A stretch of DNA of 64,000 nt from a virus. Each line of letters starts with the position of its first letter. Positions within the stretch are counted from its first letter, which is position 1. This document shows positions 34,409-55,639 of the stretch, piece after piece. Both the position numbers and the translations under genes were made by a program. Where the stretch lies: positions 1-64,000 of the IMG/VR virus record IMGVR_UViG_3300025108_000001. One strand, 5' to 3'. Under the pieces are notes generated by a model. That model searched no databases, had not been told where the DNA came from, and saw nothing but the letters and a program-made list of their open reading frames with translations.

Positions 34409-34729
34409 TTACAACCTCCTCATGTTTCCTTTTAAATCAAATTGCATACCGAATGCATCGTATTTTCCTGAAACCTCAACATCAACATAATAACCGCCTT
34501 CTTTATCATCAGGGTCAAGACTTAAGTAAATATCAATATATTTACCGAGACCTGCCAATGCATCTCCACGATTAATCTCATCCTGTAATTCTTTCATTTT
34601 TTCTTCTGTATAATCATTTTCATCAAATATATTATCATTCAAATACGTCTCCACCATTGGCTCAAACAAATCTCTAAATTGTTCAATAGTTTTTCCACTT
34701 TCTTTTTTAATTATTTTTTCCCAACTCAT
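34409..34729 (-). CDS. Acidic protein with MSWxxIIK N-terminal tag
   Basis: Probable start is the internal ATG at 34729 (MSWEKIIK). Confidence 0.7.
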   Translation of the reverse strand: MSWEKIIKKESGKTIEQFRDLFEPMVETYLNDNIFDENDYTEEKMKELQDEINRGDALAGLGKYIDIYLSLDPDDKEGGYYVDVEVSGKYDAFGMQFDLKGNMRRL

Positions 34730-34731
34730 AT

Positions 34732-34962
34732 TTATCTCTCCATTGTAGTTACTAATTCGTGTATGTCTTCCCAAGCCATACTCTTTTTGATAGTATTATC
34801 CATTGGAATATTATTACTATCCATTCTAGGAGAAGGGGAATTAACCACAACTAATCCTGATTTCATAAGTAGGTTATCTTTGTGATAAACTGCTTCCTCC
34901 AAGTGTTTCACCTTATTCACTAATTCTTTTAATAGCATTAACATTTCGTTATCATCACTCAT
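34732..34962 (-). CDS. Small scaffold-like protein
   Basis: Coiled coil; ends IKK/SMAWEDIHELV, paralleling the protease-scaffold end MTWDDVHSLV. Confidence 0.6.
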   Translation of the reverse strand: MSDDNEMLMLLKELVNKVKHLEEAVYHKDNLLMKSGLVVVNSPSPRMDSNNIPMDNTIKKSMAWEDIHELVTTMER

Positions 34963-35035
34963 TTTCTTGTAGCCCCCTAATATACTTGGTTAACTCTTTA
35001 TGTATTAAACTTTCTAACTCTTTTTTTCTACTCAT
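34955..35035 (-). CDS. 26-aa microprotein (not in ORF track)
   Basis: MSRKKELESLIHKELTKYIRGLQENE; overlaps both neighbours and exactly fills the gap. Confidence 0.45.
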   Translation of the reverse strand: MSRKKELESLIHKELTKYIRGLQENE

Positions 35036-35184
35036 CTCTTACTCACCATCTCATCAACGGCCTCTTTTAAATCATCTATAATTTTTCTAAGTTTCACTCT
35101 AAAAGCCAAAGGAATTTCCATAGTGCTTATAGTTCCTATAACTGTTTTTAATGTTTGAATTGTTCTTTGGTCGTATTTTGTCAT
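35032..35184 (-). CDS. Hypothetical protein (50 aa)
   Basis: Probable start MTKYDQ at 35184, just after the upstream stop, with a GGAG SD. Confidence 0.5.
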   Translation of the reverse strand: MTKYDQRTIQTLKTVIGTISTMEIPLAFRVKLRKIIDDLKEAVDEMVSKR

Positions 35185-35185
35185 T

Positions 35186-35860
35186 CTAAATCTCTCCTTT
35201 AAGGTCTTTACCATATTTTTCTCGCCCGTACATACTAGGAGGGGGATAAAATCCTTCATCTGCCATTTCCTCTCTCTCTCTCCTACTGAGAGAATAATAC
35301 CAATTTGCATATCTCTCTCTATCGTCTTCGTCATCATTTCCGCTAGGGTCTTTAGATGACCCTTCTCCTATTTTTAAAGATTCTAAAACAGTATCAGTAA
35401 ATACTTCTTCATCTTCTAAAACTCTAGGAATCCTAAATATCGGCTTATCTCCCATTTCTGTATATGCACCTTCTGAATAGATAACAAAATACAGAATCTT
35501 CTCAATACCTTTGTATTTTACTTTTGTAGCGACACCGCCCTTTACATCGTGTTCGTATAGGCCATCACCATCAGGATTATCTTCAAAGTTATATTTTTCA
35601 TCTATTAATTTAGCAAACGTAATGTTTATCCCTAATTTAGACATTGCTTGTGCAATATCTTCTAGTTCTTTACCTAGTTTTGTTTGATAAGTACTTTCAT
35701 AGGGACTGGTTCGTTTTAAAGACTCATGTAATTTACGCGCAAATGGGATTCTCATATTCATTGCTACTTCTTTATAATTATCAGTAAATCCGTCTTTGTC
35801 AATTCTAACGCCATTAGGTTTTTTAGTAAAATCTCTTTTTAATATATCTTCCCAACTCAT
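35186..35860 (-). CDS. MSWEDILK-tagged hypothetical protein
   Basis: N-terminal tag; ATGA overlap with the upstream gene. Confidence 0.7.
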   Translation of the reverse strand: MSWEDILKRDFTKKPNGVRIDKDGFTDNYKEVAMNMRIPFARKLHESLKRTSPYESTYQTKLGKELEDIAQAMSKLGINITFAKLIDEKYNFEDNPDGDGLYEHDVKGGVATKVKYKGIEKILYFVIYSEGAYTEMGDKPIFRIPRVLEDEEVFTDTVLESLKIGEGSSKDPSGNDDEDDRERYANWYYSLSRREREEMADEGFYPPPSMYGREKYGKDLKGEI

Positions 35861-36183
35861 TCTAAATCCCCCTTACTCTTTGGATAAACTAAGTCTCGTA
35901 TTTGCCGATACAAAGTTTCGTAATCTTTTCTAAGTTCTGCTGCCGAAGAAACTATGTCTAAATTCTTTTCATCGAAACTCTCAAACTTTTTTTGTAGTCT
36001 TTTATCAGACTTAATTAAGTCTAATTTTTTCATCTCATCTAACAGGTCTGAAAGATGAGTCATCTCTTGCCCCATGTATTCAGTAGGTTGAGTTTTTTGA
36101 AGAAGTTTCTTAAGTTTCTTTTTTTGTTTAGTATCAACTTTTTCTAAAATTGAAGATGATTTAAGTATTTCTTTCCAACTCAT
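35857..36183 (-). CDS. MSWKEILK-tagged helical protein
   Basis: N-terminal tag; further ILEK/V and LIK/S sites. Confidence 0.7.
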   Translation of the reverse strand: MSWKEILKSSSILEKVDTKQKKKLKKLLQKTQPTEYMGQEMTHLSDLLDEMKKLDLIKSDKRLQKKFESFDEKNLDIVSSAAELRKDYETLYRQIRDLVYPKSKGDLE

Positions 36184-36232
36184 ACTCAACCACCTTGTCT
36201 ATCCGTTCTTATCTCTAGTTTATGAAGTTTCT

Positions 36233-38371
36233 TTATTTCAACTGATTACGGTCATTATACTCAGGGTTTTCATATTCAGATTCATCTGTGTCTGTAATAT
36301 CATTCCCTTTAGGTGCATCTATGTTCTTACTAAAGAAGGCATCCACCTCTTTCTCAAGGGTTGTAATTTCGTTGCTAATCTTATTGAGGTCTCTTCTAAC
36401 AGTATTTACGTTCCTTAAAGTAAGAACCGCCCATTTTTGTTTATCTAAATCTGATGTCTGTCTTACTAATTTATTTAAAAAATTACTTTTCAATAACACA
36501 TAATTTAGTATTTCAGAATCATTAATTTTAGAAGTATCATTTTCATCAAACTTAGGCAAGGAAGTTTCGTTTTCTTTATTTAGTTTAAACTTCAATTTAA
36601 AATCTATCCATAACTTTTCAGTTCCTTTTCTTTCGTCTCTTAAACGAGTTAGTCTATTTCTTTCAATTACCCCCATATTCTCTTCCGTTCTTTCTCTAGA
36701 AGTATGCGGCTTTAAAAGATAACCGTATTCTACTGGTTGAATAACTTTCCTATCTACTAATTTGCTCTTACCATCTTTATCCTTTACACTTGCTAATGAT
36801 GTTCCATCTTTATCCTTTACACTATTAAGTGGTAATTTAAATGAAGGCAATCCTCCAATAGTTAATTTTTTCTCTAATTCTTTAAATATAGTATTATAAG
36901 TTTTTTTAAGTCTGCCTCTTGCTTTGGTTAGTTCAATTTGTCGTTCAAAATCATCTGCAAGTTCACTACTTTCTTCTTGTTCTTCACTATCAGAACTTGA
37001 TTCTGGAATATCAATACTAGTTAAATAATCTTTAAAATCCCTTACCGATATTTCTTGTCCTTTAATAGAAAAAGTATTACTAAATAAAGAGCCTAAACTT
37101 ACATCATCTTTCATGTAAGGCTTCAAATTATCAATGTCTTGTCTAGTTTGATTATATTCTTTTACTACTGAATTTGGTAAAACTATACCTTTAGTTTCTA
37201 ATATAATTTTTATAAAATGTAATATTTCGTGATACTCCTTTGCTTTCACTAGAGCAATGTCAAATTGTGAAATAGTGTTTTGTGTTTCGCCATCTAAATC
37301 CTTAGCCATTTCAGTTATTTCATTTTCTAACATAATAATTTTTTCCATTATATCTAAAGCAATAGTTCTATAAAGAACCGAGTTTTGTCTGTTTAAAATT
37401 TTACTAATTTCTGTTTCGAGTTCACTATTATCTGCGGCAGGGTCATTAACTACCTCTCCATCTTGACTAATAGTAGGGTTTCCCCCTCTAAAATACAAGT
37501 CCATTATTTGTTTAACATTATCAATTTTAGTAGGATAATCCATATTTAAATAACCTATTAATTTAACACTGCTTAAATTAGTTTTAATATCATCATCAAA
37601 ATCTATATCAAGGGTATCAAATATATCATTCATAATCTCTCTTGAGTTTTTATTATTATATATCTTAAATTGATTTAACCACCCGCCCACTTTTGAAAAG
37701 GACGCTCCCTCATCTACCAATAGATTACGCAACTCAGCAGCAATACGTTTTCTACCTTTAAAAAAATCATTAATTTCGCTAGATAAACTGTTAATTAATT
37801 TAACTTCATCTTCGTCATTTTGATTAACATTACCTCTTAATAGTATGTCTTTAAGTTGTGATGCTATTTCTTCGGTTTTGGTTGCTAGTGGTGAATCAAG
37901 ATTTTTTTGTATTTTCGTAAAAGGGCTATCATCACTAAAAAGTAATTCATGCACTTTAGGATATTTTTCCTCATTGTATTTACTTTTAAGGTTCTCTAAA
38001 GCAGTTTTTAAATTATTCAATGTAGTCAAATCATCACTTTGTCCGGTAGGAAGTAACTGAACTTCGGATACCTCTTCCAAATTCTTATTTTGGGTCTTAA
38101 CTTTTCCACTTTTTCTTTTTACAGCATAGATTTCAGTTGTGCCGCTTGACCCTTTAAAATTACCATCAAATATTATATCATGTTCAATAGGAGTATTAGT
38201 TGTTTCTAATTCCTTTTTTAATTTTAAAAACTCACGTTCTAGATTTGATATGCTGTTAATAGAAACTGTATGAATTTCCTTTCTATTTTTAGATAGAACC
38301 TTTAATATCTTACTCCACGGATTTTTTCTTGCTTTCACAATATCTTTTTTTAAAATATCCATGAACGACAT
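36233..38371 (-). CDS. Large helical protein with tag variant MSFMDILK (712 aa)
   Basis: N-terminus MSFMDILK..IVK/A..PWSKILK; internal SVKDKDG duplication. Confidence 0.7.
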   Translation of the reverse strand: MSFMDILKKDIVKARKNPWSKILKVLSKNRKEIHTVSINSISNLEREFLKLKKELETTNTPIEHDIIFDGNFKGSSGTTEIYAVKRKSGKVKTQNKNLEEVSEVQLLPTGQSDDLTTLNNLKTALENLKSKYNEEKYPKVHELLFSDDSPFTKIQKNLDSPLATKTEEIASQLKDILLRGNVNQNDEDEVKLINSLSSEINDFFKGRKRIAAELRNLLVDEGASFSKVGGWLNQFKIYNNKNSREIMNDIFDTLDIDFDDDIKTNLSSVKLIGYLNMDYPTKIDNVKQIMDLYFRGGNPTISQDGEVVNDPAADNSELETEISKILNRQNSVLYRTIALDIMEKIIMLENEITEMAKDLDGETQNTISQFDIALVKAKEYHEILHFIKIILETKGIVLPNSVVKEYNQTRQDIDNLKPYMKDDVSLGSLFSNTFSIKGQEISVRDFKDYLTSIDIPESSSDSEEQEESSELADDFERQIELTKARGRLKKTYNTIFKELEKKLTIGGLPSFKLPLNSVKDKDGTSLASVKDKDGKSKLVDRKVIQPVEYGYLLKPHTSRERTEENMGVIERNRLTRLRDERKGTEKLWIDFKLKFKLNKENETSLPKFDENDTSKINDSEILNYVLLKSNFLNKLVRQTSDLDKQKWAVLTLRNVNTVRRDLNKISNEITTLEKEVDAFFSKNIDAPKGNDITDTDESEYENPEYNDRNQLK

Positions 38372-38383
38372 AATCTAACTTCC

Positions 38384-38614
38384 TTAGAATGGTATATTTT
38401 CACTACGCATATTCTTTCTTTTAGGTGTTATCATAACATCAGGAATATTACTAGGTGCATCGTCTGTTTTATTTTTTAACGTAGTGCTAGGGTCTACACC
38501 AACAACTGCATAGTCTCTACTAATGTTGACATTACTCCTTTGTTCCGCACCTTCTTTAATTCTCGCTTGCTTCAATTCTCTTTCTAATTGTCTTACACTT
38601 TTTTCTTCACTCAT
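38384..38614 (-). CDS. Hypothetical protein
   Basis: Probable start MSEEKS after an AGGTGA SD. Confidence 0.6.
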   Translation of the reverse strand: MSEEKSVRQLERELKQARIKEGAEQRSNVNISRDYAVVGVDPSTTLKNKTDDAPSNIPDVMITPKRKNMRSENIPF

Positions 38615-38619
38615 ATTAA

Positions 38620-38874
38620 TCACCTGTTTCTCTTTTCTTCATCTAGATTTTTCTTTGCTCTTGCTATGAAAGACTTATGCCCTCCAGTTCTTGGGGGAGT
38701 AATACCTGTAAATGAAGGACTAGCAGGGTTTTCAGTATACATTAAACAACTTCCGTTATTACTAATGTTTACGTTAGGTAATGTGCATTTCATATTTTTA
38801 TTATGTTTACATTTACTGGCTTTACAAACATCTATTCTGCATTCTGCTTCCTTGACTATATTTTTCCAACTCAT
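38620..38874 (-). CDS. MSWKNIVK-tagged Cys-rich protein
   Basis: Tag followed by a C-x4-C-x4-C-x7-C-x12-C small domain. Confidence 0.65.
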   Translation of the reverse strand: MSWKNIVKEAECRIDVCKASKCKHNKNMKCTLPNVNISNNGSCLMYTENPASPSFTGITPPRTGGHKSFIARAKKNLDEEKRNR

Positions 38875-38875
38875 T

Positions 38876-39145
38876 TTAATCTCTCCTCATTTCATCTTGC
38901 ATATCTTCTAAGTGTTTTTCATATTGATTTCTTTCTTCTTGGGTAGTCTCTTCTCTATCTTTCTGATTCATTACATTTCGTGGTTGTTCTTTTCCTGAAG
39001 AATTAACCATATCTTGTAACTCTCTTCGTTCTTTGGTTTTTTGCCTTTCATTAGTAAAGGAAACCGGACTACCATTTACCCTTCTATTCAGACTTATTTT
39101 TTTTCTTGCCGTATTTTTTCTTTTAACTATCTCAAACCAACTCAT
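38876..39145 (-). CDS. MSWFEIVK-tagged charged protein
   Basis: Tag at internal ATG 39145. Confidence 0.65.
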   Translation of the reverse strand: MSWFEIVKRKNTARKKISLNRRVNGSPVSFTNERQKTKERRELQDMVNSSGKEQPRNVMNQKDREETTQEERNQYEKHLEDMQDEMRRD

Positions 39146-39146
39146 C

Positions 39147-39350
39147 TTAATCACTTAATTCCTGTTTAACCCAATCGAACTCATCTTCAACATTATATTT
39201 ACTAAGTTTGTTTCTTATGTTATTCCAACTTGCCCCAAAGTCTAATAGTTTTTTTGTGTATTCTAAAACACTTTTTTTTCTATTACCATAATCTATCCAT
39301 TTTGGATATGAAAAAGATGGTTCAAACTTTAAGGCTTCAAACCATGTCAT
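39147..39350 (-). CDS. MTWFEALK-tagged small protein
   Basis: Tag; abuts the portal stop. Confidence 0.6.
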   Translation of the reverse strand: MTWFEALKFEPSFSYPKWIDYGNRKKSVLEYTKKLLDFGASWNNIRNKLSKYNVEDEFDWVKQELSD

Positions 39351-41009
39351 TTAACCAACTCTCCTTTCTGTTCTTTTGTCATTATTTTGATTCCCTGCAT
39401 CCTTTGGTAATCCTGAAAATCTTTTATCGGGAGCATTAAACATACTAGGCTTGTTTCTTTTTTTAGGTGGTTCTGATTTAACTTTTTCGGGAACACCCGC
39501 TTCGGCCATTGTCGGTTTATTTCCTTCCGCCATCATTTGACCTAACTGACTAGCATCAATATCCGTACCTGCGTAAGGGTCAAGTTCAAACTCATCTTCT
39601 TTACCCTGTTGTTTTTCTTTTTCTTCCATAGGTTTATCATAAGTAAACCTGCCTTCTGAATCCATCTTTACTTCAAATCCTAAGTTCTTTATTGCCCCTG
39701 CAATATTAACTTCCATTTCTCTTAGTCTTAATTTAGCAATTTCATCTTCTTCTTCCGAAGGTGGAAGTTTTAATTCCCAATCTGTAATACCAAATTGATT
39801 AGTAATAAAGGGAAACACATAATTATTCCAAGTCGTTTGAGCCATCTCTACTGCGCGATTAGTAACAAGTATTTGCATACCTTCGTTATTTAATCCACCG
39901 CCCGCAGAAGCGTCATTCATAAACACTTTACTTACACCATAAAAGGCAGAAATTCTATCTCGTAAATCATCTTTTACTGCAACATATTCCATTTCTTTTA
40001 GGCTATCCATGAATCTAACCCATTCAACAGAACCCTTTCCGGTTTCCGATTCAATTCCCATTACCGGAATAAAGTGAGGGTCTTGTTCCATCTTTTCTTT
40101 AACACCTCGCCAAAACGATTTCATTGACTCCATATTTCTTGTCTGAACAGCCAACAATCCCTTCGGCATTCTTGCCTTAGTATATGATGAGTTAACATAA
40201 TTATCCATTGCAATTAATGTAGTAACATTATTCCACAAAGTAAGAATAGGAGACATACCATATAATCTAGAAGGGGAATATTTGCTAAAGTGAACTACTT
40301 CCCCTTTGATGAAATATTGTTCTTCTCCGTTAACACGATTAACATAATGAACAGGATACAATTCTGAATTACAGGTCTCACAAGTTTCACTCGGATGTTC
40401 ATGTATTCTGTCTCTATGGCGCAGACAAACATAACCCCCTTTTCCTCTTTCGCCAAGTTCATTAGAATAAATGTGCATAGTAACAGGGTCGCCTCTAAAC
40501 ACTTCTTTTATTCGATGCATTCTAACCTTAGAATTATTGTCTAAATAATATTCCTTTACTGTAACTAAGTAAGCATCATCCATTATATTCAAATCATCTT
40601 CTAATTCTTTCAATACATCTATGAACATTTGGTCTGCATTATTTACATATCCTTCTAAAAAGTTTTTAGCATACACTAATTGTTTTGAATCCGGTTTAAC
40701 TAAATCAGTAGATTCACAATCTGTGCATTGTAGGACGGGATTAGTATGTTCTTTTCCACAAGAATTACATTTTAATGCAAATTTTTCCTCCCACAAATAC
40801 CCTCTTCTGAAAACCTCTTGTTTAAGTTGGGTAATACAAGTCCTAACAATAGTTGACTGTTGCACTATATGATAAATAATAGGACTAGTTAACATATAGG
40901 AATTATCTCTTTCTTGTATTCCTAAATTGTAAACCGTTCTATCAGCAGGTTTAGGTGTAGTATTTCTAAATAGATTACTAAATGAAAATTTTCTTTTCTC
41001 TTCTACCAT
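39351..41009 (-). CDS. Portal protein with Zn-finger insertions
   Basis: VVHFSKYSPSRLYGMSPI, MPKGLL, EMEY and RISAFYGVS portal motifs; downstream of TerL. Confidence 0.88.
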   Translation of the reverse strand: MVEEKRKFSFSNLFRNTTPKPADRTVYNLGIQERDNSYMLTSPIIYHIVQQSTIVRTCITQLKQEVFRRGYLWEEKFALKCNSCGKEHTNPVLQCTDCESTDLVKPDSKQLVYAKNFLEGYVNNADQMFIDVLKELEDDLNIMDDAYLVTVKEYYLDNNSKVRMHRIKEVFRGDPVTMHIYSNELGERGKGGYVCLRHRDRIHEHPSETCETCNSELYPVHYVNRVNGEEQYFIKGEVVHFSKYSPSRLYGMSPILTLWNNVTTLIAMDNYVNSSYTKARMPKGLLAVQTRNMESMKSFWRGVKEKMEQDPHFIPVMGIESETGKGSVEWVRFMDSLKEMEYVAVKDDLRDRISAFYGVSKVFMNDASAGGGLNNEGMQILVTNRAVEMAQTTWNNYVFPFITNQFGITDWELKLPPSEEEDEIAKLRLREMEVNIAGAIKNLGFEVKMDSEGRFTYDKPMEEKEKQQGKEDEFELDPYAGTDIDASQLGQMMAEGNKPTMAEAGVPEKVKSEPPKKRNKPSMFNAPDKRFSGLPKDAGNQNNDKRTERRVG

Positions 41010-42334
41010 TAAGCAATCACTCCTTCTAATTTATCCATCTCAAACATTTTACACTTATCGTGTAATTTAAAAACAGTAGTAATATCAATACCATCCTTAG
41101 AAAAATCATAACCAACATGGTCTTTATGATTTTCATATTTCATTAATTGAAATAATTCAGTTTTTCTTTCATCATACCAATCTGCTTTTTTATAGGATTT
41201 TTTCATTCGTAATAACTCCAATAATATATCTGCGTTTTTCCCTTTCATTCTAAAATGTGGCCTACATTTAGTTAATAATTCGACTACATCATCATGGGAA
41301 TAAAAATTTAATCTGTTAACAGGTCTAGTGTCTTGCGGAGATTTTTGGTCTAAATGTAATCTACCGCAACCTAATGATTTATGCATCTCTAACATAAACG
41401 CCTTTCCTCTTTCTCCTGTTGCTACCAAACCTACTCTTGGATTGAACTTTTTATCCATAGTAATATAGCCATCCGAATCTATGAAAGCCGCAGTATAAGC
41501 ATAAATATCTTTTTTAATATCATCACTAAACTTATAGAAAGCACCATTGACATTAGTAACATTGCAAGATATAGCCATCTTGGAAATTATACTTGGAGTA
41601 GTTTTATGAAATAAATTCTTAGGTAGTCTTTCATGTATTTGCCTTGCTGAAATTCCTGATTCTTCGCTAACTAAAGAAACAATGTTGTGTTTAATAATTT
41701 CTTTTTTATTAATTGATTTCAGGTGTTTTTTAATTAGATGTTTAAACTCTCTCTTAGAAGATGTCATCTCTTTGGATAGTTTAGCAAAATTACTATTATA
41801 ACCGATTTCATTTTTATCTATTTTTGCTTCCCAATATTTACACAAAACATCTATTATTTTTCTTCTTGTATTTTCATCATCAACATATGATAGTTTGATT
41901 AGTTGGTCTTCGCTACAAGTCATATCTTGTACTTGAGATTTATATTTACTTAACCAATAAATATTATCAATACTATTTTCTAAATGATTAGCGTAACCGT
42001 CAATTAAATTATCAATTGATTTTGACATTTGTATTCTATCTTCTCCTTTCAGAGTTCTTCTATACTTACGCATTTTTTTAATCATCTTAGGGATATCTGT
42101 TCCTTCGACTTCATATTTTTTAAGTTTATATTCAAGATGTTTTCTTGCATCTGTTAAAGATAAATCAAACTCTTTAGCAAATGTTTTTTCCAATTGAGTG
42201 TGGTCTGATATAGTAGAATCAACTAACCAACTTCTCTTCAAATCTTCGGTTATTCTTTTTTGTTGTTCTTCTAGGGATTCTTCTTCATCGGCAAGGTGTC
42301 CGAGTTCTCTTAATTTGTCTCCTTTTTCACTAAT
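41009..42334 (-). CDS. HTH plus single-motif LAGLIDADG endonuclease-like protein
   Basis: YTAAFIDSDGYIT motif, downstream LGCGRL..RPHFRMK, and wHTH-like GISARQIHERL. The frame is open upstream to ATT at 42334, preceded by GGAGGTGA. Confidence 0.75.
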   Translation of the reverse strand: MSEKGDKLRELGHLADEEESLEEQQKRITEDLKRSWLVDSTISDHTQLEKTFAKEFDLSLTDARKHLEYKLKKYEVEGTDIPKMIKKMRKYRRTLKGEDRIQMSKSIDNLIDGYANHLENSIDNIYWLSKYKSQVQDMTCSEDQLIKLSYVDDENTRRKIIDVLCKYWEAKIDKNEIGYNSNFAKLSKEMTSSKREFKHLIKKHLKSINKKEIIKHNIVSLVSEESGISARQIHERLPKNLFHKTTPSIISKMAISCNVTNVNGAFYKFSDDIKKDIYAYTAAFIDSDGYITMDKKFNPRVGLVATGERGKAFMLEMHKSLGCGRLHLDQKSPQDTRPVNRLNFYSHDDVVELLTKCRPHFRMKGKNADILLELLRMKKSYKKADWYDERKTELFQLMKYENHKDHVGYDFSKDGIDITTVFKLHDKCKMFEMDKLEGVIA

Positions 42335-42357
42335 ACTCTCACCTCCGCTACTTGCCT

Positions 42358-43791
42358 CTAGAAGTTCAGTCCTAACATACCGCCTAAAGAGTTATTCGTA
42401 GTTGTGGGAGCATTGAATAATCCCATATCATCTAATAACATAAATACATCTTGTGAATTTTGCGTGGCGGCATTGGCTAATGCCAAACTCATTACTAAGT
42501 CATCGTGTGCGCCTACGCCTTCAAACTTTCCTGAATGAGTAATAGAAAACATTGACAATTCTTCTATCAACATATTGGTTAATTTTTTACTAGAGTTGTC
42601 GCCATAGGGAAAGTTAATTTTTCCATTTTCTATGTTCATTTGTAGGTTAAGAATTATTTCCTGTTTTCTCTTTCTTGTTGTGTTGAAATCAGTTACATTC
42701 AAATCTGAAACATTTCTTAACTCTTGAGTAAATGCCTTAGCAAACGTATTTGTTTCATATAGAATTTCTTCGGGTTCAAATATTTTACCTATCAATCTAA
42801 TTTTATCTATATTTTCTCTAAACTCAACATTCTTGGCTCTATCCACATGAACAATTGTTTTATTCATATTTTCATCAACTTCTAAAACAGTAATTACATT
42901 ATAATCTCCATCGGTAGAGATAGCAGGGTCAACACCAACGTAATATTTGTATCCCTTGTCTTTTCTATGTCCCAATTTTAATACATATTCTTTATTTTTA
43001 CATTTAGTTACAAATTCAGGATTGAAAAGTGCTGTTCCTGTGGAAATTGGAACACAAAGATATTCTCTTGTAAATTTTAGAGAACCGATTTCTGCCTTTC
43101 TTTGCATCAGTGCTTCATAATTCCATCTCTCCGGCCAAAGAGGTTCATTTAAAGAATTAAGACAAGGGTATCTGTTTACAGTATAGGCATCATTCTCTTC
43201 TAACTGTGCAAATATATCTGTATAGGTAAAAGGAGTGCCAATCATTCTCAATTTAGAAGTGTGATGTAGTGTCGGTATCATATCTCCGAAAAACCAATCA
43301 GTAACTTTCTCTATACCAACTATACTGAACTCTTTCAAAGGGTCGTCAATAATAATTTCTTGAGGATGTAGTCCTCTAATCTGAGAACCTACGGAACGCT
43401 CTAAAATTGCATTGCCGTTTGTTAATTGAATATTACCAATAGCCCAACCCCTGCTAGGTCTAAATTGTTTTAATGCGGGTAAGTTGAAATATCTATCTAT
43501 TTCTCTCATATGAACTAAAGTCTGCTTTTGGTTAGAAGAAATGTATAGCATCTGAAAAGGAGGCTCTTGGAATACTAAATTCCATACTACCCAACTGTGC
43601 ATAAATACAGATTTGCCGTGGTCTCTACTACAAATTATAACTGTTCTATCAGTAGTATTCATAGAGTCTAACCATTCTTGCATATATTCAGGATACATCA
43701 TACCTAAAACATTTTGAAAAAAATATGGAAAGGAAGTTTTAGATAATTCCATATCCATTTGGGTTACGAAATCTAATTCATTTAACTCCAA
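42358..43791 (-). CDS. terL: Terminase large subunit
   Basis: Walker A SRDHGKS, Walker B IIIDD, motif III IGTP, nuclease VGVDPA and HDDLVMS. Confidence 0.93.
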   Translation of the reverse strand: MELNELDFVTQMDMELSKTSFPYFFQNVLGMMYPEYMQEWLDSMNTTDRTVIICSRDHGKSVFMHSWVVWNLVFQEPPFQMLYISSNQKQTLVHMREIDRYFNLPALKQFRPSRGWAIGNIQLTNGNAILERSVGSQIRGLHPQEIIIDDPLKEFSIVGIEKVTDWFFGDMIPTLHHTSKLRMIGTPFTYTDIFAQLEENDAYTVNRYPCLNSLNEPLWPERWNYEALMQRKAEIGSLKFTREYLCVPISTGTALFNPEFVTKCKNKEYVLKLGHRKDKGYKYYVGVDPAISTDGDYNVITVLEVDENMNKTIVHVDRAKNVEFRENIDKIRLIGKIFEPEEILYETNTFAKAFTQELRNVSDLNVTDFNTTRKRKQEIILNLQMNIENGKINFPYGDNSSKKLTNMLIEELSMFSITHSGKFEGVGAHDDLVMSLALANAATQNSQDVFMLLDDMGLFNAPTTTNNSLGGMLGLNF

Positions 43792-43795
43792 AAAA

Positions 43796-46528: not shown

Positions 46529-46530
46529 AA

Positions 46531-48999: not shown

Positions 49000-49000
49000 C

Positions 49001-49306
49001 TTATTTATCTCCAACTTCATAGAACAGTGCTTCATTAGACTCGGCAGGGGTTAATCTTCCAAGAGGGTGTCTTCCGGCATCAAAACATTCCTTACAAGAA
49101 TCTCCCAAATCCGAATTATCATTGTCCGGTTCATAATCCACAATCGTCCACTTTTTTCCTAATAACTTCATACGACAAGAATCACAAATCTTCTTACCAC
49201 ATCCTCCTTCACAGGCTGTATGGTGAACCTCTTTCTCATTAGGACTAATACCACAATAAGAGCAATCTTGTTCAGTTTCACTTTTTAATACATCTTGCCA
49301 ATTCAT
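49001..49306 (-). CDS. MNWQDVLK-tagged Cys-rich Zn-binding protein
   Basis: Tag plus CSYC, CEGGC, CDSC and CKEC. Confidence 0.7.
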   Translation of the reverse strand: MNWQDVLKSETEQDCSYCGISPNEKEVHHTACEGGCGKKICDSCRMKLLGKKWTIVDYEPDNDNSDLGDSCKECFDAGRHPLGRLTPAESNEALFYEVGDK

Positions 49307-49318
49307 TGAACTCTCTCC

Positions 49319-49864
49319 TTAGACATCTTCTCTTCTGTCAAATGCCGTATGTTGGTCTGCATTTCTTCTTTGCTTCCAACCACCTTCGACCCGTTTTGTT
49401 TTAGGTCGTCTTAAATTAGATAAAGCACTAGAGCCGCTAAGATTTCTTGTTAAAGGCGGTAATGCAAAACTAAATTTTTCATTTTTAATTGACCCTGCAC
49501 TATATTCAATTGTAATAATTGCATCTTCTTCGGGATAAGCGTCATCGAACAAAGTATTAGCCACATCCCCTCTATCTCGATTTTTTTGTGGCTTAACTAC
49601 TACATCGTGAATTTTTATTCTAAGGCTACTTGGAAGACCCTTATATCCTCCATAATGTTGAATCACGCTAACTAATTGATTATCAGGAAATTGATTCCTT
49701 CTTAGTTTGTATAAATCACTTTTACTCATCATTAATATTCCGTTAGTTAAAGCACTTTCAATAGTAATCTTTAATTTGCCTTCACTCATTTCTTCAGGTG
49801 CGTGTTTCCTACCTAACATTCTTGCTTCTCTTAAATCAACTTTTAATATTTCTTTCCAACTCAT
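49319..49864 (-). CDS. MSWKEILK-tagged protein
   Basis: Probable start at 49864 (ATGA overlap). Confidence 0.7.
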   Translation of the reverse strand: MSWKEILKVDLREARMLGRKHAPEEMSEGKLKITIESALTNGILMMSKSDLYKLRRNQFPDNQLVSVIQHYGGYKGLPSSLRIKIHDVVVKPQKNRDRGDVANTLFDDAYPEEDAIITIEYSAGSIKNEKFSFALPPLTRNLSGSSALSNLRRPKTKRVEGGWKQRRNADQHTAFDRREDV

Positions 49865-50247
49865 TGTATTAACCCCTCTAATTTCATTTTTTCCCAAAAC
49901 CCTGATGTATGGGGTTGTATTTTAGACACGGTTGGTAATACATTCGTGTCTTCCAATGAATGCAATTCCTCAATAAACTCCTTAAGATATTCTCTTGCCT
50001 TGCCTTTATTTTGTATATTATCTTTAATAGTAAACACATGAATATCCCAAAAATAGTTACTTGGATTTTCGTCTTGATGATAAACTGCTTCACCCCTTGC
50101 CTTTTTATCATTAGATTCCCATGTTAATTTATCATCCCATTCAGGCGTTAAATCTGACAAGTATTGAAATTGTTTGTCCTTTCTTGGTTTATATGGATTA
50201 CTACCCATATACCAAGTAGGAGATTTCAAAATATTCATCCAACTCAT
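49861..50247 (-). CDS. MSWMNILK-tagged GNAT-like protein
   Basis: IHVFTIKDNIQNKGKAREYL resembles GNAT motif A (Q/RxxGxG/A); also GFWEKM. Confidence 0.55.
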   Translation of the reverse strand: MSWMNILKSPTWYMGSNPYKPRKDKQFQYLSDLTPEWDDKLTWESNDKKARGEAVYHQDENPSNYFWDIHVFTIKDNIQNKGKAREYLKEFIEELHSLEDTNVLPTVSKIQPHTSGFWEKMKLEGLIQ

Positions 50248-50262
50248 TGTAATCTCTCCTTC

Positions 50263-50571
50263 TCAATCTTTTCTTTCTAAAACAATATACCAATCAAAAA
50301 CTGTTCCATCTTCTTTTGTGGCGGCAGGTTCTAATTGTTGAATAGAAAATCCGCCATTTTGTTCTAAGAAATCCCTCAAATTACTCGTTCTTATATCTGA
50401 TGACAGAACATCTTCCTTACTTGAATAAACTTGTGCTAATACTTCCTTATCATCAACAATATAACTTCTAAGCCCACTGTAACTTGTATTTGGAAAAGCA
50501 ACTTTACTTTTAAAATCCTTTCTTTTTCCATGACTTATAAAATCATTTTTCAATATATTTTTCCAACTCAT
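50263..50571 (-). CDS. MSWKNILK-tagged protein
   Basis: Tag; ATGA overlap. Confidence 0.7.
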   Translation of the reverse strand: MSWKNILKNDFISHGKRKDFKSKVAFPNTSYSGLRSYIVDDKEVLAQVYSSKEDVLSSDIRTSNLRDFLEQNGGFSIQQLEPAATKEDGTVFDWYIVLERKD

Positions 50572-51224
50572 TGTAACTTACTCTCCATTTGTTTTCTAAC
50601 ATCTAGCCAAACTTCAGGGTGATTTTGTGCTAACACTTCTTTAATAATTTGCATCTGATGAACAATAATTGTATCTTGTCTCTTGTGAACTAACTTACCT
50701 TTGAACTCCATCAAGTATCTCAAACTCTCACGGACTTCCTTTGCTAACTTAGTTAATGAATCTATATGTTTTGGGTCTAACTCATCTGATTGGAAAAGTA
50801 AATCTAATTTAGTATCTAGTCTAGAAATGTTAGCACTTAAAGTATCAACTTCATTTATCTCTCGCATTGCTATCATGTTTGCTGCTGATTGTTGAACTAA
50901 AGGTTGAACGTGATTTTTCATATGGCGAACTACTTGGTCGGCAGTGCAGTTTACCATTGACCCTACTTCTTCAGGAGTAATTAAAGAATCGTGTATTTGT
51001 AATTCGATTGCACTTCTATGTTCACTAGTGCAAACATTACATTTTGGATTAGAAGAATTAACATATCCTTCCATGTGATTTCTTTGATGCCTTGAAGCAG
51101 TGCCACTAGGCCAATCCATTTGAATATCTAACTCATCAGCAGTAATTATCATGTTATCTAATTCATCTTCAAGGCTCTGCCTATTATCTAAATTACAAAA
51201 AACACAACGTTTTCTAGTTACCAA
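50568..51224 (-). CDS. Putative terminase small subunit
   Basis: Two tandem CxxC...RH.xNH Zn/HTH repeats followed by coiled-coil oligomerisation-like helices; located in the packaging region. Confidence 0.5.
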   Translation of the reverse strand: MVTRKRCVFCNLDNRQSLEDELDNMIITADELDIQMDWPSGTASRHQRNHMEGYVNSSNPKCNVCTSEHRSAIELQIHDSLITPEEVGSMVNCTADQVVRHMKNHVQPLVQQSAANMIAMREINEVDTLSANISRLDTKLDLLFQSDELDPKHIDSLTKLAKEVRESLRYLMEFKGKLVHKRQDTIIVHQMQIIKEVLAQNHPEVWLDVRKQMESKLQ

Positions 51225-51228
51225 CTAA

Positions 51229-51480
51229 TCACCCCATTGTCTCTTTCAATTTTTCTTTAAGTTCTTCTAATGTTTTTTCCGCATCAAGAATAGTAGGTCT
51301 TTGTATTTGTTCAATGATGTTTCTTGCATATTCTATAAGCAAACCTGTTTCTTTATTCATTTTAATAGCGGCTTCTTCAATATCTTCATACAACTTTTCT
51401 AGTAGTTTTTCCGTCTTTTCAATTTGGTCTAGATAAAATGAATATTCTTCTAATCCCTTTAATACAGAAAACCAACTCAT
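51229..51480 (-). CDS. MSWFSVLK-tagged coiled-coil protein
   Basis: Tag; GGGAGA SD. Confidence 0.7.
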   Translation of the reverse strand: MSWFSVLKGLEEYSFYLDQIEKTEKLLEKLYEDIEEAAIKMNKETGLLIEYARNIIEQIQRPTILDAEKTLEELKEKLKETMG

Positions 51481-51497
51481 CTTAATTTCTCCCTCAT

Positions 51498-51680
51498 TTA
51501 TAGTAATTTTTTAAGTTCAGTAATTAAAACCTTAACATCTTCTTTAGTATAGGGTTCAGGATTTGCTAATTTTTCTGGACTAGGATAGCCTAAAATATTG
51601 GAATTAAGTACTTCCATAACTTCGTCCGTTATATCATCTCCCCAATCAAAATCTTCTTTTATTATTCCTTTCCAACTCAT
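51498..51680 (-). CDS. MSWKGIIK-tagged small acidic protein
   Basis: Probable start at 51680. Confidence 0.65.
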   Translation of the reverse strand: MSWKGIIKEDFDWGDDITDEVMEVLNSNILGYPSPEKLANPEPYTKEDVKVLITELKKLL

Positions 51681-51681
51681 C

Positions 51682-51759
51682 TTAATACTCTCCACAATAA
51701 CTACACATACAACAAGAATAATTATCCTCATCTATTTCCATATTACAACATTCTAACAT
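51682..51759 (-). CDS. 25-aa six-Cys microprotein (not in ORF track)
   Basis: MLECCNMEIDEDNYSCCMCSYCGEY; fills the gap between two genes exactly. Confidence 0.5.
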   Translation of the reverse strand: MLECCNMEIDEDNYSCCMCSYCGEY

Positions 51760-52958
51760 ATCATTTCCCTCTTTAAAATATCTTTCCAATTATCTGTATT
51801 GGAATTTATTGATTTATTAGTTTGTTCAAAACCTTCTTGTTGTAAATTATTTTCAGTTGTTTCTTCAACCGGAAAGTTAGCAATCTGAATAGTATTGAAA
51901 TTTCTCTTGTTTTTATTTTCCCAACGCATTCTTTTGTTGTCTAGTAAAATAGTTACAATTTCATTTATTCTCCATCTGCTTATTTTAAACCAAGCAGATT
52001 TTATTTCATTGGGAATATTTATTCCAATCATTTCTTTAATTCTATCAGAATCATTCCCTCTAGGTATTTGTATTGCTTTTCCTTCAATTTCCTTTTGACA
52101 CCTTTCCCATTGAAAATTACCATTAGGTAGAGGTGTTTTCATCCATTTCTTTATTATTCTTTTAACACCACTAATCTCCATTGCTTTCCTAGCCCAACCA
52201 GTTTGAGTTTTATCTCCCAACTGTATTGGTGTATCTTTGCTTAAACCAAGTGGTTGTTCTAATGCTTCTATTCCGGCATTGACTATTTGAAGTAAACTAT
52301 TAGTTAATGTATAGCCCACTACATCATTTGGATTTTCAGCATATAACATAGACCAAAAGGGAGGCTTTGCCAAATTGGGGTCAATATTATACCAAGCCGA
52401 ATCAACAGCAGGTGAAGGTTTTAGTGGAGGGTCGCCCTTTTTACGATTTTTTATTTTATATTCTATTCTATCTTCATAATTAGGAGTTCTAAAATGACCG
52501 AAAATTTTTCGTCTCCCTGTTATCTCACCTGTTTCATCATCTATTTCTTTATCTAGAAAAGGAATACTTCTAGGGTTTGAATCATTTGCACTTGAATTGA
52601 TATTGTTCATATATTGCTGTAATTGTTTCAAATCAGTAATATCATCAACATCAATATCATTGTTAAATATTCTTTTTAACATAGCATTTATTTTGTTCCC
52701 GCCTTCGGGCGAAACTGCACCTGCGAAACCCTTCCTTCTTCCAATTAGACCTTGTTTCAGAAACATACCGTATAGAGAAAGTTGAGGTTGGAGCATTCCT
52801 ATTTTATTTCCTTTAACTGCCTTAGTTTCTGTAACCCATAATTGAAACATTTCACTTAGTAATTTAACATTAACATTGCCTTCAAAATTATAAGTTCCGG
52901 TAGGAGTAGTTGCACTAATCGTTGTTCCTTCTTCTTTTTTTATTGTTTTTTCTACCAC
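51753..52958 (-). CDS. Hypothetical protein ending in WKDILK
   Basis: Probable GTG start at 52958 after GGAGGT; N-terminal VEK/TIKK/E and C-terminal NWKDILKR. Confidence 0.65.
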   Translation of the reverse strand: MVEKTIKKEEGTTISATTPTGTYNFEGNVNVKLLSEMFQLWVTETKAVKGNKIGMLQPQLSLYGMFLKQGLIGRRKGFAGAVSPEGGNKINAMLKRIFNNDIDVDDITDLKQLQQYMNNINSSANDSNPRSIPFLDKEIDDETGEITGRRKIFGHFRTPNYEDRIEYKIKNRKKGDPPLKPSPAVDSAWYNIDPNLAKPPFWSMLYAENPNDVVGYTLTNSLLQIVNAGIEALEQPLGLSKDTPIQLGDKTQTGWARKAMEISGVKRIIKKWMKTPLPNGNFQWERCQKEIEGKAIQIPRGNDSDRIKEMIGINIPNEIKSAWFKISRWRINEIVTILLDNKRMRWENKNKRNFNTIQIANFPVEETTENNLQQEGFEQTNKSINSNTDNWKDILKREMIC

Positions 52959-53085
52959 GTTTTTTACCTCCTTTTGATGAAATTGATTTGTTATTAAATA
53001 AAGATGAAGTTCCATTATTACTAGTAGTAACTGCCCCTGCCATTCGTAGTATAGTAAACCATTTACTGTTAGGGATAGTTGCCAC
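52915..53085 (-). CDS. Small basic protein with KWFTILR tag variant (not in ORF track)
   Basis: MATIPNSKWFTILRMAGAVTS...KGGKKRGRKNNKKRRRNND, 56 aa. Confidence 0.5.
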   Translation of the reverse strand: MATIPNSKWFTILRMAGAVTTSNNGTSSLFNNKSISSKGGKKRGRKNNKKRRRNND

Positions 53086-53211
53086 TTGTATAAGCGCAAC
53101 AACAATTAGACTATGAATGTTTCACTAATTACTATTGTTTTTTATTTTTTCTGATTGCAACCCACACCCAAAAATCATTTGATAAAGTCCAAAAAAATTT
53201 CTCTATTCTAT

Positions 53212-53544
53212 TCAAGAACCTTTTCTCCACTTCTCATTTTTCTTTTCCTTAGTTTTACTAGGACTCCACTTTACTTTATCAGACCAATATGCGGCAGACA
53301 TTTTACCACGTTTAATATTCTTAGCGTGTCTAGATTTGAAGGCCTTTCTTTGACCTGCTGTTTGATTTGTTTTTACTCCCTTCTGTCCGAACCTAATAGT
53401 TTTAACTTTATCACCATCTTTTACTACAACAATGTGAGATTTAGTTTTGTGCTTAATTCTCTTGGGCTTACTAAAGCCACTAACACCTGCTCTTTTCAAC
53501 GCAGGGTGTTTACCCTTCTTTTTTAGAACTTCAAACCATGTCAT
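53212..53544 (-). CDS. MTWFEVLK-tagged highly basic protein
   Basis: SHIVVVKDGDKVKTIRFGQKG...RKAFKSRH...MSAAYW, recalled as a small basic family common near packaging genes of marine phages (unverified). Confidence 0.75.
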   Translation of the reverse strand: MTWFEVLKKKGKHPALKRAGVSGFSKPKRIKHKTKSHIVVVKDGDKVKTIRFGQKGVKTNQTAGQRKAFKSRHAKNIKRGKMSAAYWSDKVKWSPSKTKEKKNEKWRKGS

Positions 53545-53912
53545 TAATTCCACAACTCTTCTTCGGGGTATAGTTCCATTGCTTCTTCTATATCTTCTCT
53601 AAAATTTTCAGCGACTTCTAACCAATCAACATCTGATATTGAATCTCCAATTTCATCTCTATCATTAACGGGAGATAATAATTCATCCATAAAACCTTTA
53701 TTTTGAGACATCATTTCGGGCAACTCTTTCGCTATTGCATCTAAAATATCTTCAATAACTTCTTTTCTAGACCAACCCCAACCAAGATATCCTTTTACTT
53801 TTTGTTTGATTAATTGTATTATTGGAAAATAATTCGCTTCCTCATTCATAACCCACAAATCTGCACTTCTAGTTGCAGTTTTAGTGTCTTTCAAAATATC
53901 TTTCCAACTCAT
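53544..53912 (-). CDS. MSWKDILK-tagged acidic protein
   Basis: Tag at 53912; strongly acidic C-half. Confidence 0.7.
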   Translation of the reverse strand: MSWKDILKDTKTATRSADLWVMNEEANYFPIIQLIKQKVKGYLGWGWSRKEVIEDILDAIAKELPEMMSQNKGFMDELLSPVNDRDEIGDSISDVDWLEVAENFREDIEEAMELYPEEELWN

Positions 53913-53917
53913 ATTAA

Positions 53918-54193
53918 TCACTTCTGCGAGAACTTCCTTCCGGTAGGAACGTGTTGTTTACCCTTTTTAGTTCCTTCTCTTTTTTTCCTATCTTGATACT
54001 TCAATCTAGACTTAGAGGTTTTCTTGTAAGTTCCCTTTGGCATATACCTACCCTTAGTTTTAGACTTAGGAGTTTTACCTTTTTCTTTGGCACTATGTTG
54101 CTCGGCGCTACCCCACTCTTCATTAGTCCAATTCTGTAAATCTCTTTGAGTTTTGGCCTTAGCCTTTAACATATCAAACCAACTACTAATCAC
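53918..54193 (-). CDS. SSWFDMLK-tagged basic protein
   Basis: Start probably GTG 54193 or ATT 54190; contains TQRDLQNWTNEEW...GRYMPK. Confidence 0.65.
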   Translation of the reverse strand: MISSWFDMLKAKAKTQRDLQNWTNEEWGSAEQHSAKEKGKTPKSKTKGRYMPKGTYKKTSKSRLKYQDRKKREGTKKGKQHVPTGRKFSQK

Positions 54194-54389
54194 GATAACC
54201 ACCACCTGCTTTTTTGTAAGCGGCTGCAAGCATTTGTGCTTTTCTTGCAGACCATTGACCTGCCGCACCACCTTTACTACCTGCTTTAATTCTTTGAAAT
54301 TGTTTTTTTCTCATCGTGGGTTTAGTATAATTACCTGCTGAATTAACGGTAGATTTCTTTTTCTTCTTAAGAACTTCAAACCAACTCAT
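54186..54389 (-). CDS. MSWFEVLK-tagged basic protein (DUF5872-like, from memory)
   Basis: NYTKPTMRK...KAGSKGGAAGQWSARKAQMLAAAYKKAGGGY. Confidence 0.75.
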   Translation of the reverse strand: MSWFEVLKKKKKSTVNSAGNYTKPTMRKKQFQRIKAGSKGGAAGQWSARKAQMLAAAYKKAGGGYRD

Positions 54390-54885
54390 AAGCATCACCC
54401 CAATATTTAGTTATAGAGTTACCACTCCTTGATTGTTTTCTAGGTTTTCCAGTTATCTTATCAAAATACCCTGAATTATAATTTTTCCCTAAGTAATATT
54501 TAAGTTCGTTTCCAGTAGGAATAGTGCTAGCACCTGTATTAAAATTATTTTTTGACTCACTCATTTTATCATACATTAACTCTAGTATCTCTCTAGGAGT
54601 TTTCGGCTCTGTAACTTCTAACATAACTTCTTCTATCAACTTCTTAGCATGAATAGACATAGACCTAGAACCTTTCTTTTCTATTTTAGAATTTAAAAAT
54701 TTAGGAAACGCTCCTGTTCTTTTAACACCTTTCTTTTCTCTTGCCTTTCTAGTACAACGTCCACATAACTCTATTCCTTTTGACGATGCAGAAGGAGTAA
54801 GTTTGGTATTGCACACCGGATTAACACAAACCTTTCTAGGTTTAGTGTTAACAGGTGTAGCCTTAATTGTGTCAAACCAACTCAT
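54376..54885 (-). CDS. MSWFDTIK-tagged Zn-finger/wHTH-like protein
   Basis: Tag, CVNPVC...CGRC, then PKTPREILELM. Confidence 0.65.
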   Translation of the reverse strand: MSWFDTIKATPVNTKPRKVCVNPVCNTKLTPSASSKGIELCGRCTRKAREKKGVKRTGAFPKFLNSKIEKKGSRSMSIHAKKLIEEVMLEVTEPKTPREILELMYDKMSESKNNFNTGASTIPTGNELKYYLGKNYNSGYFDKITGKPRKQSRSGNSITKYWGDAYELV

Positions 54886-54896
54886 TGTCTGCCTCT

Positions 54897-55190
54897 TTAT
54901 TCTATTCTTTCAGAAGGTATGTTAAACTCAAAATTATCCACTTCTCCCAATGTTGTCAAATTTGTTTCTAATTTACCTAAACCGATTTGTATATCTAATA
55001 ACAGTTCCCGAATTGCATCATGGTCAAATCTATTTTCTTCAGTTTTAGGTGTATCATAAAGCGCCTTTCTTGTTGCCTCAATACCATCCACTAAAACATT
55101 AAAATTTTTCATCATCTCTTTCATACTATCTGCATCTATTTTTTGCTTTATTATAGTAGTTTCTTTCTTAAGCATATTTTCCCAACTAAT
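54897..55190 (-). CDS. (I/M)SWENMLK-tagged protein with probable ATT start
   Basis: GGGGGTG SD, 4 nt, then ATT AGT TGG GAA AAT ATG CTT AAG. Confidence 0.65.
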   Translation of the reverse strand: MSWENMLKKETTIIKQKIDADSMKEMMKNFNVLVDGIEATRKALYDTPKTEENRFDHDAIRELLLDIQIGLGKLETNLTTLGEVDNFEFNIPSERIE

Positions 55191-55387
55191 AAAACACCCC
55201 CCCAGTAAACACATTACCTTCTAAAAGACTCAAGTTTAATATTATTCCGTTTCCTACTATTTTTGTGGGTAATAAAATGTTTTACCTAACGAAAAGTGAA
55301 AAATGTGGTGGAATTTTTTTACCACTAGCGCGCGTTTTTTTTTTAATTTACTACCATAACCGTAATAAGGATACTATTATTAAAAAA

Positions 55388-55639
55388 TTAAGGAGCATAA
55401 AACGGCTTAACTCTTCTATTACAAGTAGTGCAATGTTTATCATTCCATTCTCCTGATGCGAAATTTAAATGACCCTTACAATAAGGACAGTAAGGGCGTT
55501 TTCTTTTACTAACGCTATCAAGAGCAGGTTTTTTATGTGTTTTTGTATTCTTTTTATTGTTATTACTATTAAAGTGGCCTAGATTCTTAATTATAGTGAA
55601 CCACAAGCCGTCAGATACTACCATTGTCATGCCTACCAC
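55388..55639 (-). CDS. Small Zn-finger protein with LWFTIIK tag variant
   Basis: CPYC...CTTC; first gene of the minus-strand region. Confidence 0.55.
   Translation of the reverse strand: MVGMTMVVSDGLWFTIIKNLGHFNSNNNKKNTKTHKKPALDSVSKRKRPYCPYCKGHLNFASGEWNDKHCTTCNRRVKPFYAP

Follow-up and report, generated by a model that had tools for sequence, protein, structure and literature searches.

Why should some 20 unrelated viral proteins begin with the same eight residues? The question is raised by a window of 64,000 nucleotides, covering the initial 64 kb of a viral record of 99,250 bp (IMGVR_UViG_3300025108_000001), in which 17 open reading frames (ORFs) on the minus strand start with M-[STN]-W-x-x-[IVAT]-[LIV]-K. 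Each of these begins at an ATG that lies 5-10 nt downstream of a Shine-Dalgarno-like ribosome-binding site (GGAG/GGGG). A degenerate DNA pattern for this octapeptide tag occurs 17 times in the window, where 100 shuffles would lead one to expect 0.12 occurrences; it is absent from the rest of the 99,250-bp genome, be it on the plus strand or in the tail module. Besides the 17 tags initiated by ATG and one by ATT, there are four looser variants (38371, 54187, 53067 and 55609). All tags and variants fall within 34.4-55.6 kb, where the tagged genes are concentrated in two hypervariable islands that flank the terminase and portal genes, on the head-gene strand. The common N-terminal octapeptide that the original prediction had described on about 20 unrelated ORFs is therefore real, every coordinate having been checked.

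Whether selection acts on the peptide or on the nucleic acid encoding it can be judged from 80 related loci, the terminases of which are 80-95% identical to that of the window. In these loci, Leu7 of the tag is written with all six codons, Ile/Val6 with at least seven and Lys8 with both, and the residues that follow (9-16) are hydrophilic and unconserved. Since synonymous codons vary freely at positions 6-8, selection operates on the peptide and not on the RNA or DNA; the octapeptide is selected as a peptide. The main competing view at this level is that of an mRNA feature that enhances translation initiation or acts as operator for a translational repressor resembling T4 RegA, and that would account for the near invariance of ATG-AGT-TGG in nucleotides and for the alike ribosome-binding spacers. 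Ser2 is almost always AGT in tagged starts. However, Ser at codon 2 is also AGT in 69% of untagged genes, against 25% genome-wide, and the near-constant AGT is thus a general codon-2 preference. Furthermore, the same peptide is found at the C-termini of three conserved proteins, and other clades keep the peptide pattern with different nucleotides. The codon variation at positions 6-8 and the general use of AGT at codon 2 largely refute a nucleotide-level motif, and we regard an mRNA-level role as highly improbable.

Similarity among the tagged proteins ends abruptly after the tag Lys, as had been predicted: all-against-all BLASTP of the 22 tagged or variant proteins of the window gave no significant similarity past the first 8-13 residues. 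These proteins range from 60 to 822 amino acids (aa) in length and from 4.2 to 11.2 in isoelectric point. The tagged genes are clustered, co-oriented and mostly small, features that would also be expected of a single diverged paralogue family, produced by tandem duplication and best conserved at its N-terminus. Similarity along the whole length of the proteins had been named beforehand as the observation that would decide for such a family, but none is detectable past residue 10, one cargo is a member of a very large family without the tag elsewhere, and the tagged proteins fall into about 145 separate clusters. A paralogue family is consequently rejected, with barely any probability left to it. 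The clusters were obtained from the genes of 81 loci after removal of the first ten residues. Approximately 145 of them are mostly tagged, giving this clade an arsenal of about 145 families with roughly 7 to 22 tagged genes per genome, whilst in the same 81 loci the large terminase (TerL), portal, p910, ligase-like protein, c76, c71, c218, protease and major capsid protein (MCP) are never tagged. The tagged genes of these loci fill two hypervariable islands within a conserved gene frame.

The cargo proteins are soluble and short, with a median length of 104 aa; most are acidic and a minority are basic. The variety of cargo proposed at the outset was in part upheld, as acidic, basic and Cys-rich proteins and proteins of more than 700 aa are all present, although a GNAT domain, also proposed, occurs in no tagged ORF of the window. 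One of the cargo families, C3, consists of the tag, then an indel-rich linker and then a conserved basic helical body. The history of the tag is most clearly exposed by the small, basic protein of ORF 53212-53544, whose family counts 5,755 members at E <= 0.001. Among its 120 best matches, 104 have the conserved core at their very start, and the tag, a prefix of the M-T-W-F-D-V-L-K type, is confined to the 16 closest; a homologue in another viral clade carries the tag of that clade, MEIAWDVVK. The tag is an add-on that can be moved from protein to protein, because this family is normally untagged and is tagged only in this viral clade. Judged from such sequence comparisons, the octapeptide is a portable, clade-specific N-terminal addition to unrelated proteins. 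The conserved core of the family reads K-D-P-R-L-x-R-A-G-V-S-G-Y-N-K-P-K-R-T-P and is without a name in Pfam or other sources.

A first indication of what the tag may do is given by the scaffold, which in this virus is fused to an S78 prohead protease. In a comparison of 77 homologues (55-89% identity), the extreme C-terminus of the scaffold has the consensus M-S-W-x-D-I-H-x-L (Trp in 77/77, Asp in 71/77, Ile in 61/77 and His in 75/77), and the first six residues of the tag match this consensus. Two further conserved proteins end in a similar way, the family of a 76-aa protein (ORF 34732-34962) with M-[DSN]-W-x-[DE]-I-[HN] and the c450 protein of relatives with [SD]-W-[RK]-[ET]-I-[VI]-K, a looser form of the motif. 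Scaffold, 76-aa protein and c450 are unrelated proteins with this C-terminal Trp motif in common. In an AlphaFold2 (AF2) model of the c450 family (pLDDT 77.7), the motif forms a short helix after some 30 disordered residues; searches with this model by Foldseek and VIA-align yielded no convincing PDB match (best Z 6.2). The c450 protein has about 360 aa in relatives and in this genome has a long, odd N-terminal extension, overlapped in another frame by the basic 56-aa ORF 52915-53085; the 5' part of the gene may be frameshifted here. Scaffold C-termini are capsid-docking elements in the phages studied, and the 80alpha scaffold and the unrelated SaPI1 protein CpmB have in common a C-terminal helix-and-hook with an R-I-I-K motif that binds the N-arm of the capsid protein (PMC5644958).

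The other end of the tag points towards the protease. The tag closes with [IVT]-[LIV]-K, and hydrophobic-hydrophobic-Lys recurs at the N-terminus of the protease, an invariant F-x-I-L-K followed by S-D, and at the protease/scaffold junction, an invariant F-D-I-L-K followed by variable sequence. Both persist in a clade with a protease of only about 50% identity. The HK97 protease cuts after Lys, and the hydrophobic-hydrophobic-Lys end of the tag may likewise be a cleavage site, as in T4, or else part of a docking hook. An alternative reading makes the tag a processing signal and nothing else, a propeptide for the S78 protease or a host protease that would activate, inactivate or time accessory proteins without sorting them to the head. 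The match between the tag end and conserved sites in the protease itself agrees with this proposal, as does the retention of an internal tag by fused double-unit proteins. However, prohead proteases of this family, that of HK97 gp4, act inside procapsids, and a cleavage site alone leaves the Trp and acidic positions common to tag and scaffold tail unexplained; processing alone is therefore an improbable account. The MCP N-terminus, G-Y-I-K-T-M-K, was also considered as a tag and rejected: relatives have Glu or Gln at the Lys position, which makes this segment part of the N-arm. A-L-L-K29 of the MCP is invariant.

In the reading that we favour, the octapeptide is an address tag for loading proteins into the capsid, an interpretation to which we give about an even chance. 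The tag would form a short amphipathic Trp helix on a flexible linker, with Trp3, Ile6 and Leu7 on one face, and would dock many unrelated small soluble proteins inside the procapsid as it assembles, where they would use the same site as the scaffold's own C-terminal Trp helix. The closing hydrophobic-hydrophobic-Lys could then be cut by the co-packaged S78 protease, freeing the cargo in the head, or could itself belong to the docking hook. The cargo would finally be ejected into the archaeal host together with the DNA. Capsid docking, cleavage of the tag and ejection of the cargo with the DNA are steps that we infer, and delivery of the cargo as effectors is put forward tentatively.

The distribution of the tag in relatives is broadly consistent with a role in head assembly. 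In the 80 related loci, 436 ORF starts match the tag; every one of them is on the terminase strand, and the opposite strand has none. By a strict DNA pattern, five complete relatives have 7 to 11 tags apiece and this genome has 17. More distant viruses use other versions. In a second clade, with a portal 43% identical, 1.1 Mb of sequence contains ten matches to the regular expression for the tag, none of the M-S-W form, and 42 ORFs carry M-[TS]-A-F-[DE]-x-A-W-x-[VI]-[VIA]-K, at one to three per genome; in the genomes mapped, these tagged genes directly follow the portal gene. A third clade has tags resembling M-N-P-M-E-V-A-W-L-V-L-K together with a scaffold tail of the first clade's type, and a broad sample of the portal family contains sporadic M-[DE]-x-A-W-x-L-L-K tags. 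These clades show the system to be old and widespread at low copy, with a massive expansion in the clade of the window. The Trp tags of these other portal-family clades (L174-L253, L254-L269 and L306-L385) read M-T-A-F-E-K-A-W-x-V-I-K, M-N-P-M-E-V-A-W-L-V-L-K and M-D-I-A-W-Q-L-L-K; they occur at low copy, some of them on proteins of 270-530 aa. An origin in cellular genomes or mimicry of a host motif was rejected, as 596 Gb of prokaryote genomes gave 36 scattered single matches and no clusters. Literature searches found no publication describing the tag.

The same distribution lends some weight to a different explanation, in which the octapeptide docks onto another common receptor, either a viral hub (portal, terminase, p910, c450 or c218) or a host factor, and thereby gathers accessory proteins at a site of assembly or replication without encapsidation. 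The aromatic-x-x-[ILV] core would also fit generic peptide-binding grooves, and the motif is placed at either protein end, N-terminal on cargo and C-terminal on c450, the 76-aa protein and the scaffold. Across clades, moreover, the type of tag does not track the scaffold tail: six positions are common to tag and tail in the window's clade and only M-x6-W or small-W in the second, and the third clade keeps an S-W-x-E-V-H scaffold tail yet uses A-W-x-V-L-K tags, of the A-W type found in the second. Tag and tail are thus not strictly co-varying. Confinement of the tag to the head region, as originally proposed, holds in this genome, where it is found nowhere else on either strand; it fails in some relatives, where the replication module contains a tagged GNAT-like gene and where small genes that are tagged or tag-like lie among the tail-fibre genes. 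A tagged 235-aa gene also stands at the far end of the other-strand operon in relatives. On the other side, the scaffold is the only carrier of the motif with a known role, and in all systems studied the scaffold C-terminus docks onto the capsid protein (PMC5644958). Moreover, the tags cluster strongly near terminase and portal, and host genomes are without such motif clusters. We consider a receptor other than the capsid unlikely, although this is the most serious competitor of a capsid address.

The lack of strict co-variation, as in the third clade, and the tagged genes outside the head module count against a capsid address, and several further observations do so as well. No function is recognisable in the cargo: Pfam and PHROGs searches with all window cargo and 44 long tagged proteins of relatives gave almost nothing, the sole matches being DUF1540, one Filament match and weak matches to DUF5754 and DUF5872, and the ESM Atlas held no usable match for the 712-aa and 822-aa proteins. 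Depletion of internal [ILV][ILVM]K sites in cargo is no more than a weak trend (56 such sites where 69 are expected; z = -1.7). Cleavage of c450 at its C-terminal motif would have little effect, because only 2-5 residues follow the Lys. Ser2 implies removal of Met1, and the match to the scaffold Met may therefore be partly fortuitous. Finally, the AF2 model of the protease-scaffold fusion is too poor (pLDDT 46.8) to place the candidate cleavage sites.

The coordinates of the tagged ORFs, the related motif sites and the principal head genes are collected in Table 1. Two of the tagged units have unusual starts. The tag ISWENMLK begins at an ATT, 5-6 nt after a strong ribosome-binding site GGGGGGTG, and the nearest in-frame ATG of its ORF (54897-55214) lies eight codons upstream and has no ribosome-binding site; the ATT at 55190 is probably a non-canonical start. 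At 53918-54389 on the minus strand, two neighbouring tagged units overlap in different frames at GAT-TAG-TAG-TTGG, the second of them without an ATG. In relatives, the second unit of this pair is likewise without an ATG, or both are fused in-frame with an internal tag (L022:15613-16017; P0155, P0157). From its sequence, the arrangement could represent a frameshift, a polyprotein-like organization or a recent gene fission.

Table 1. Tagged ORFs, related motif sites and head genes of the window
Feature	Coordinates	Strand	Remarks
HK97-fold MCP	28892-30295	-	Presumed docking surface
S78 prohead protease fused to scaffold	30308-31519	-	Presumed tag reader and cutter; Pfam Peptidase_S78 and S78_2, PHROG HK97-type head maturation protease
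C-terminal Trp helix of protease-scaffold	30323-30349	-	M-T-W-D-D-V-H-S-L; family consensus M-S-W-x-D-I-H-x-L
Protease/scaffold junction	31001-31024	-	EAKFDILK; invariant F-D-I-L-K, then variable sequence; candidate self-cleavage site
Tagged ORF, 106 aa	34409-34729	-	MSWEKIIK; acidic
C-terminus of conserved 76-aa protein	34753-34782	-	M-A-W-E-D-I-H-E-L-V; ORF 34732-34962
Tagged ORF, 224 aa	35186-35860	-	MSWEDILK; no Pfam match
Tagged ORF, 108 aa	35857-36183	-	MSWKEILK; in most conserved tagged family (C3)
Conserved 712-aa protein	36233-38371	-	Phe variant MSFMDILK; no family or Atlas match
Tagged ORF, 84 aa	38620-38874	-	MSWKNIVK; Cys-rich, DUF1540
Tagged ORF, 89 aa	38876-39145	-	MSWFEIVK; basic
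Tagged ORF, 67 aa	39147-39350	-	MTWFEALK; directly downstream of portal gene
Portal	39351-41009	-	
Large terminase (TerL)	42358-43791	-	
Tagged ORF, 822 aa	46531-48999	-	MSWQSVLK; largest cargo
Tagged ORF, 101 aa	49001-49306	-	MNWQDVLK; Cys-rich
Tagged ORF, 181 aa	49319-49864	-	MSWKEILK
Tagged ORF, 128 aa	49861-50247	-	MSWMNILK
Tagged ORF, 102 aa	50263-50571	-	MSWKNILK
Tagged ORF, 83 aa	51229-51480	-	MSWFSVLK
Tagged ORF, 60 aa	51498-51680	-	MSWKGIIK
C-terminus of conserved c450 protein	51771-51794	-	D-N-W-K-D-I-L-K; ORF 51753-53105
Loose variant	52915-53085	-	SKWFTILR at 53067, inside ORF with GTG start at 53085
Tagged ORF, 110 aa	53212-53544	-	MTWFEVLK; 5,755-protein family, most of best matches untagged
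Tagged ORF, 122 aa	53544-53912	-	MSWKDILK
Tag-like start	53918-54187	-	SSWFDMLK without ATG (ATT AGT AGT TGG); overlaps stop of preceding tagged ORF in another frame
Tagged ORF, 67 aa	54186-54389	-	MSWFEVLK
Tagged ORF, 169 aa	54376-54885	-	MSWFDTIK
Tagged ORF, 97 aa	54897-55190	-	(I)SWENMLK; probable ATT start
Loose variant	55388-55609	-	GLWFTIIK; 73 aa from motif; zinc-ribbon-like; inside ORF starting 55639, start codon uncertain

The genome that surrounds these genes carries an exact direct terminal repeat of 5,440 bp (genome positions 1-5440 and 93811-99250), which leaves a unique length of 93,810 bp. The repeat may reflect real terminal redundancy, or else the genome may be circularly permuted and the repeat an overlap left by its assembly. 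From about 55.7 kb downwards, the minus strand encodes a small-gene island, the 822-aa protein, a 910-aa protein (p910) and TerL, followed by an HNH-like protein, the portal, a second small-gene island and an 873-aa ligase-like protein, and then by the S78 protease-scaffold fusion, the HK97-type MCP and tail genes. Past 56 kb (genome positions 56001-96000), the replication module on the plus strand encodes a UvrD-like helicase, a canonical 514-aa ATP-dependent ligase, a family B DNA polymerase divided between two genes (566 and 308 aa) and a TFIIB-type zinc-ribbon protein. The 873-aa gene (31560-34181, minus strand), situated between the portal-side island and the prohead protease, is thus a second ligase-like gene, and in its family a tag-like K-W-K-x-T-[VI]-K has been retained at residues 44-50, within the conserved N-terminal region. 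The TFIIB-type zinc ribbon in the replication module indicates an archaeal host, and we take the gene content to fit that of magroviruses. Among GenBank phage records, the nearest named relative has 28% identity in TerL and none is closer.

Amongst characterized systems, the closest parallel is the capsid-targeting sequence (CTS) of phage T4, a peptide to which conservation among the diverse internal proteins is limited (PMC3012670). In the T4 proteins IPI-III and Alt, and at the polymorphic internal-protein locus of T-even phages, as here, a short N-terminal peptide is the sole common part of diverse, fast-evolving proteins; the T4 peptide targets its carriers to the core of the prohead and is removed at the prohead-protease site in which it ends, and the cargo includes anti-restriction proteins (PMC3012670). 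The octapeptide has no sequence similarity to the T4 peptide, however, and it occurs with an HK97-type S78 protease, not one of the gp21 type, in a virus with an archaeal host. The scale also differs: a genome here has about 20 tagged genes and the clade about 145 families, whereas T4 has a handful. Finally, the tag here copies the C-terminal helix of the scaffold, and packaging and cleavage, known in T4, are putative here. Given the S78 protease, the unrelated peptide and the archaeal host, the system would work like that of T4 without being a member of it. The proposal that it is an independent archaeal equivalent draws strength from the portable, clade-specific tag, its concentration in two islands beside terminase and portal, its match to the scaffold tail, an end that recurs in the protease itself and a protease without T4 homology, and is weakened by a confinement to the head module that is not absolute. 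It is nevertheless a reasonable reading, because the tag is portable, scaffold-matched and without T4 homology.

In the giant phages (SPN3US and phiKZ-like), propeptides of ejection proteins are said to be long and not a single uniform short tag. Many head-internal proteins of these phages are reported to be processed by the prohead protease (PMC7411985, PMC10052503). With 80alpha and CpmB, the present system has in common a short terminal helix on unrelated proteins, here a Trp helix on the scaffold, the 76-aa protein and c450; the helix of 80alpha and CpmB is amphipathic and is joined to a hydrophobic-hydrophobic-Lys hook. Unlike theirs, the motif here is mainly N-terminal, has another sequence and is spread over about 145 families, two orders of magnitude more; there is no role in redirecting capsid size, and a contact with the capsid is putative, read from sequence. 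In HK97, the C-terminal encapsidation segment of the gp4 protease can reportedly take foreign proteins along. The likeness lies in the S78 protease and in a short terminal segment that carries a protein into the procapsid (Duda, Oh and Hendrix 2013, cited in PMC12749128), putatively so in the present case. In contrast, the HK97 signal is C-terminal, is found on the protease only and binds the delta domain of the capsid protein, whilst here the delta domain is absent and the scaffold is fused to the protease. Encapsulins resemble the proposed arrangement in that diverse cargo docks inside an HK97-fold shell by way of short terminal peptides borne on flexible linkers. These are, however, cellular compartments without portal, terminase or tail, and their peptides are mostly C-terminal, of other sequence and not removed. 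An encapsulin cargo-loading system is ruled out here by the presence of TerL, portal and tail genes.

In the ocean, few archaeal viruses are as abundant as the magroviruses, and hardly any of their accessory genes has a known function; to our knowledge, no magrovirus has been cultured. In its widest form, the proposal for these viruses and their relatives is that of a terminal-peptide sorting code, in which a Trp helix at either protein end, tuned to each clade, loads into the head a large, quickly exchanged arsenal of small, ready-made proteins that the protease releases there and that are injected along with the DNA into Marine Group II archaea as effectors of the first minutes. Such a code would be an archaeal-virus counterpart, on a far larger scale, of the T4 internal proteins, and would have evolved independently, by copying the docking helix of the scaffold. 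This larger scheme is possible but, as a whole, doubtful. If the tag is indeed a capsid address, sequence alone would predict the 20 or so proteins of each genome that travel in the particle. Fast-evolving proteins that might serve to take over the host or to counter its defences would thereby be singled out in a system that is uncultured, and foreign proteins could be loaded into an HK97-fold shell by means of a handle of eight residues. It would also mean that protein packaging of the T4 kind arose independently in archaeal viruses, by mimicry of a scaffold docking helix.

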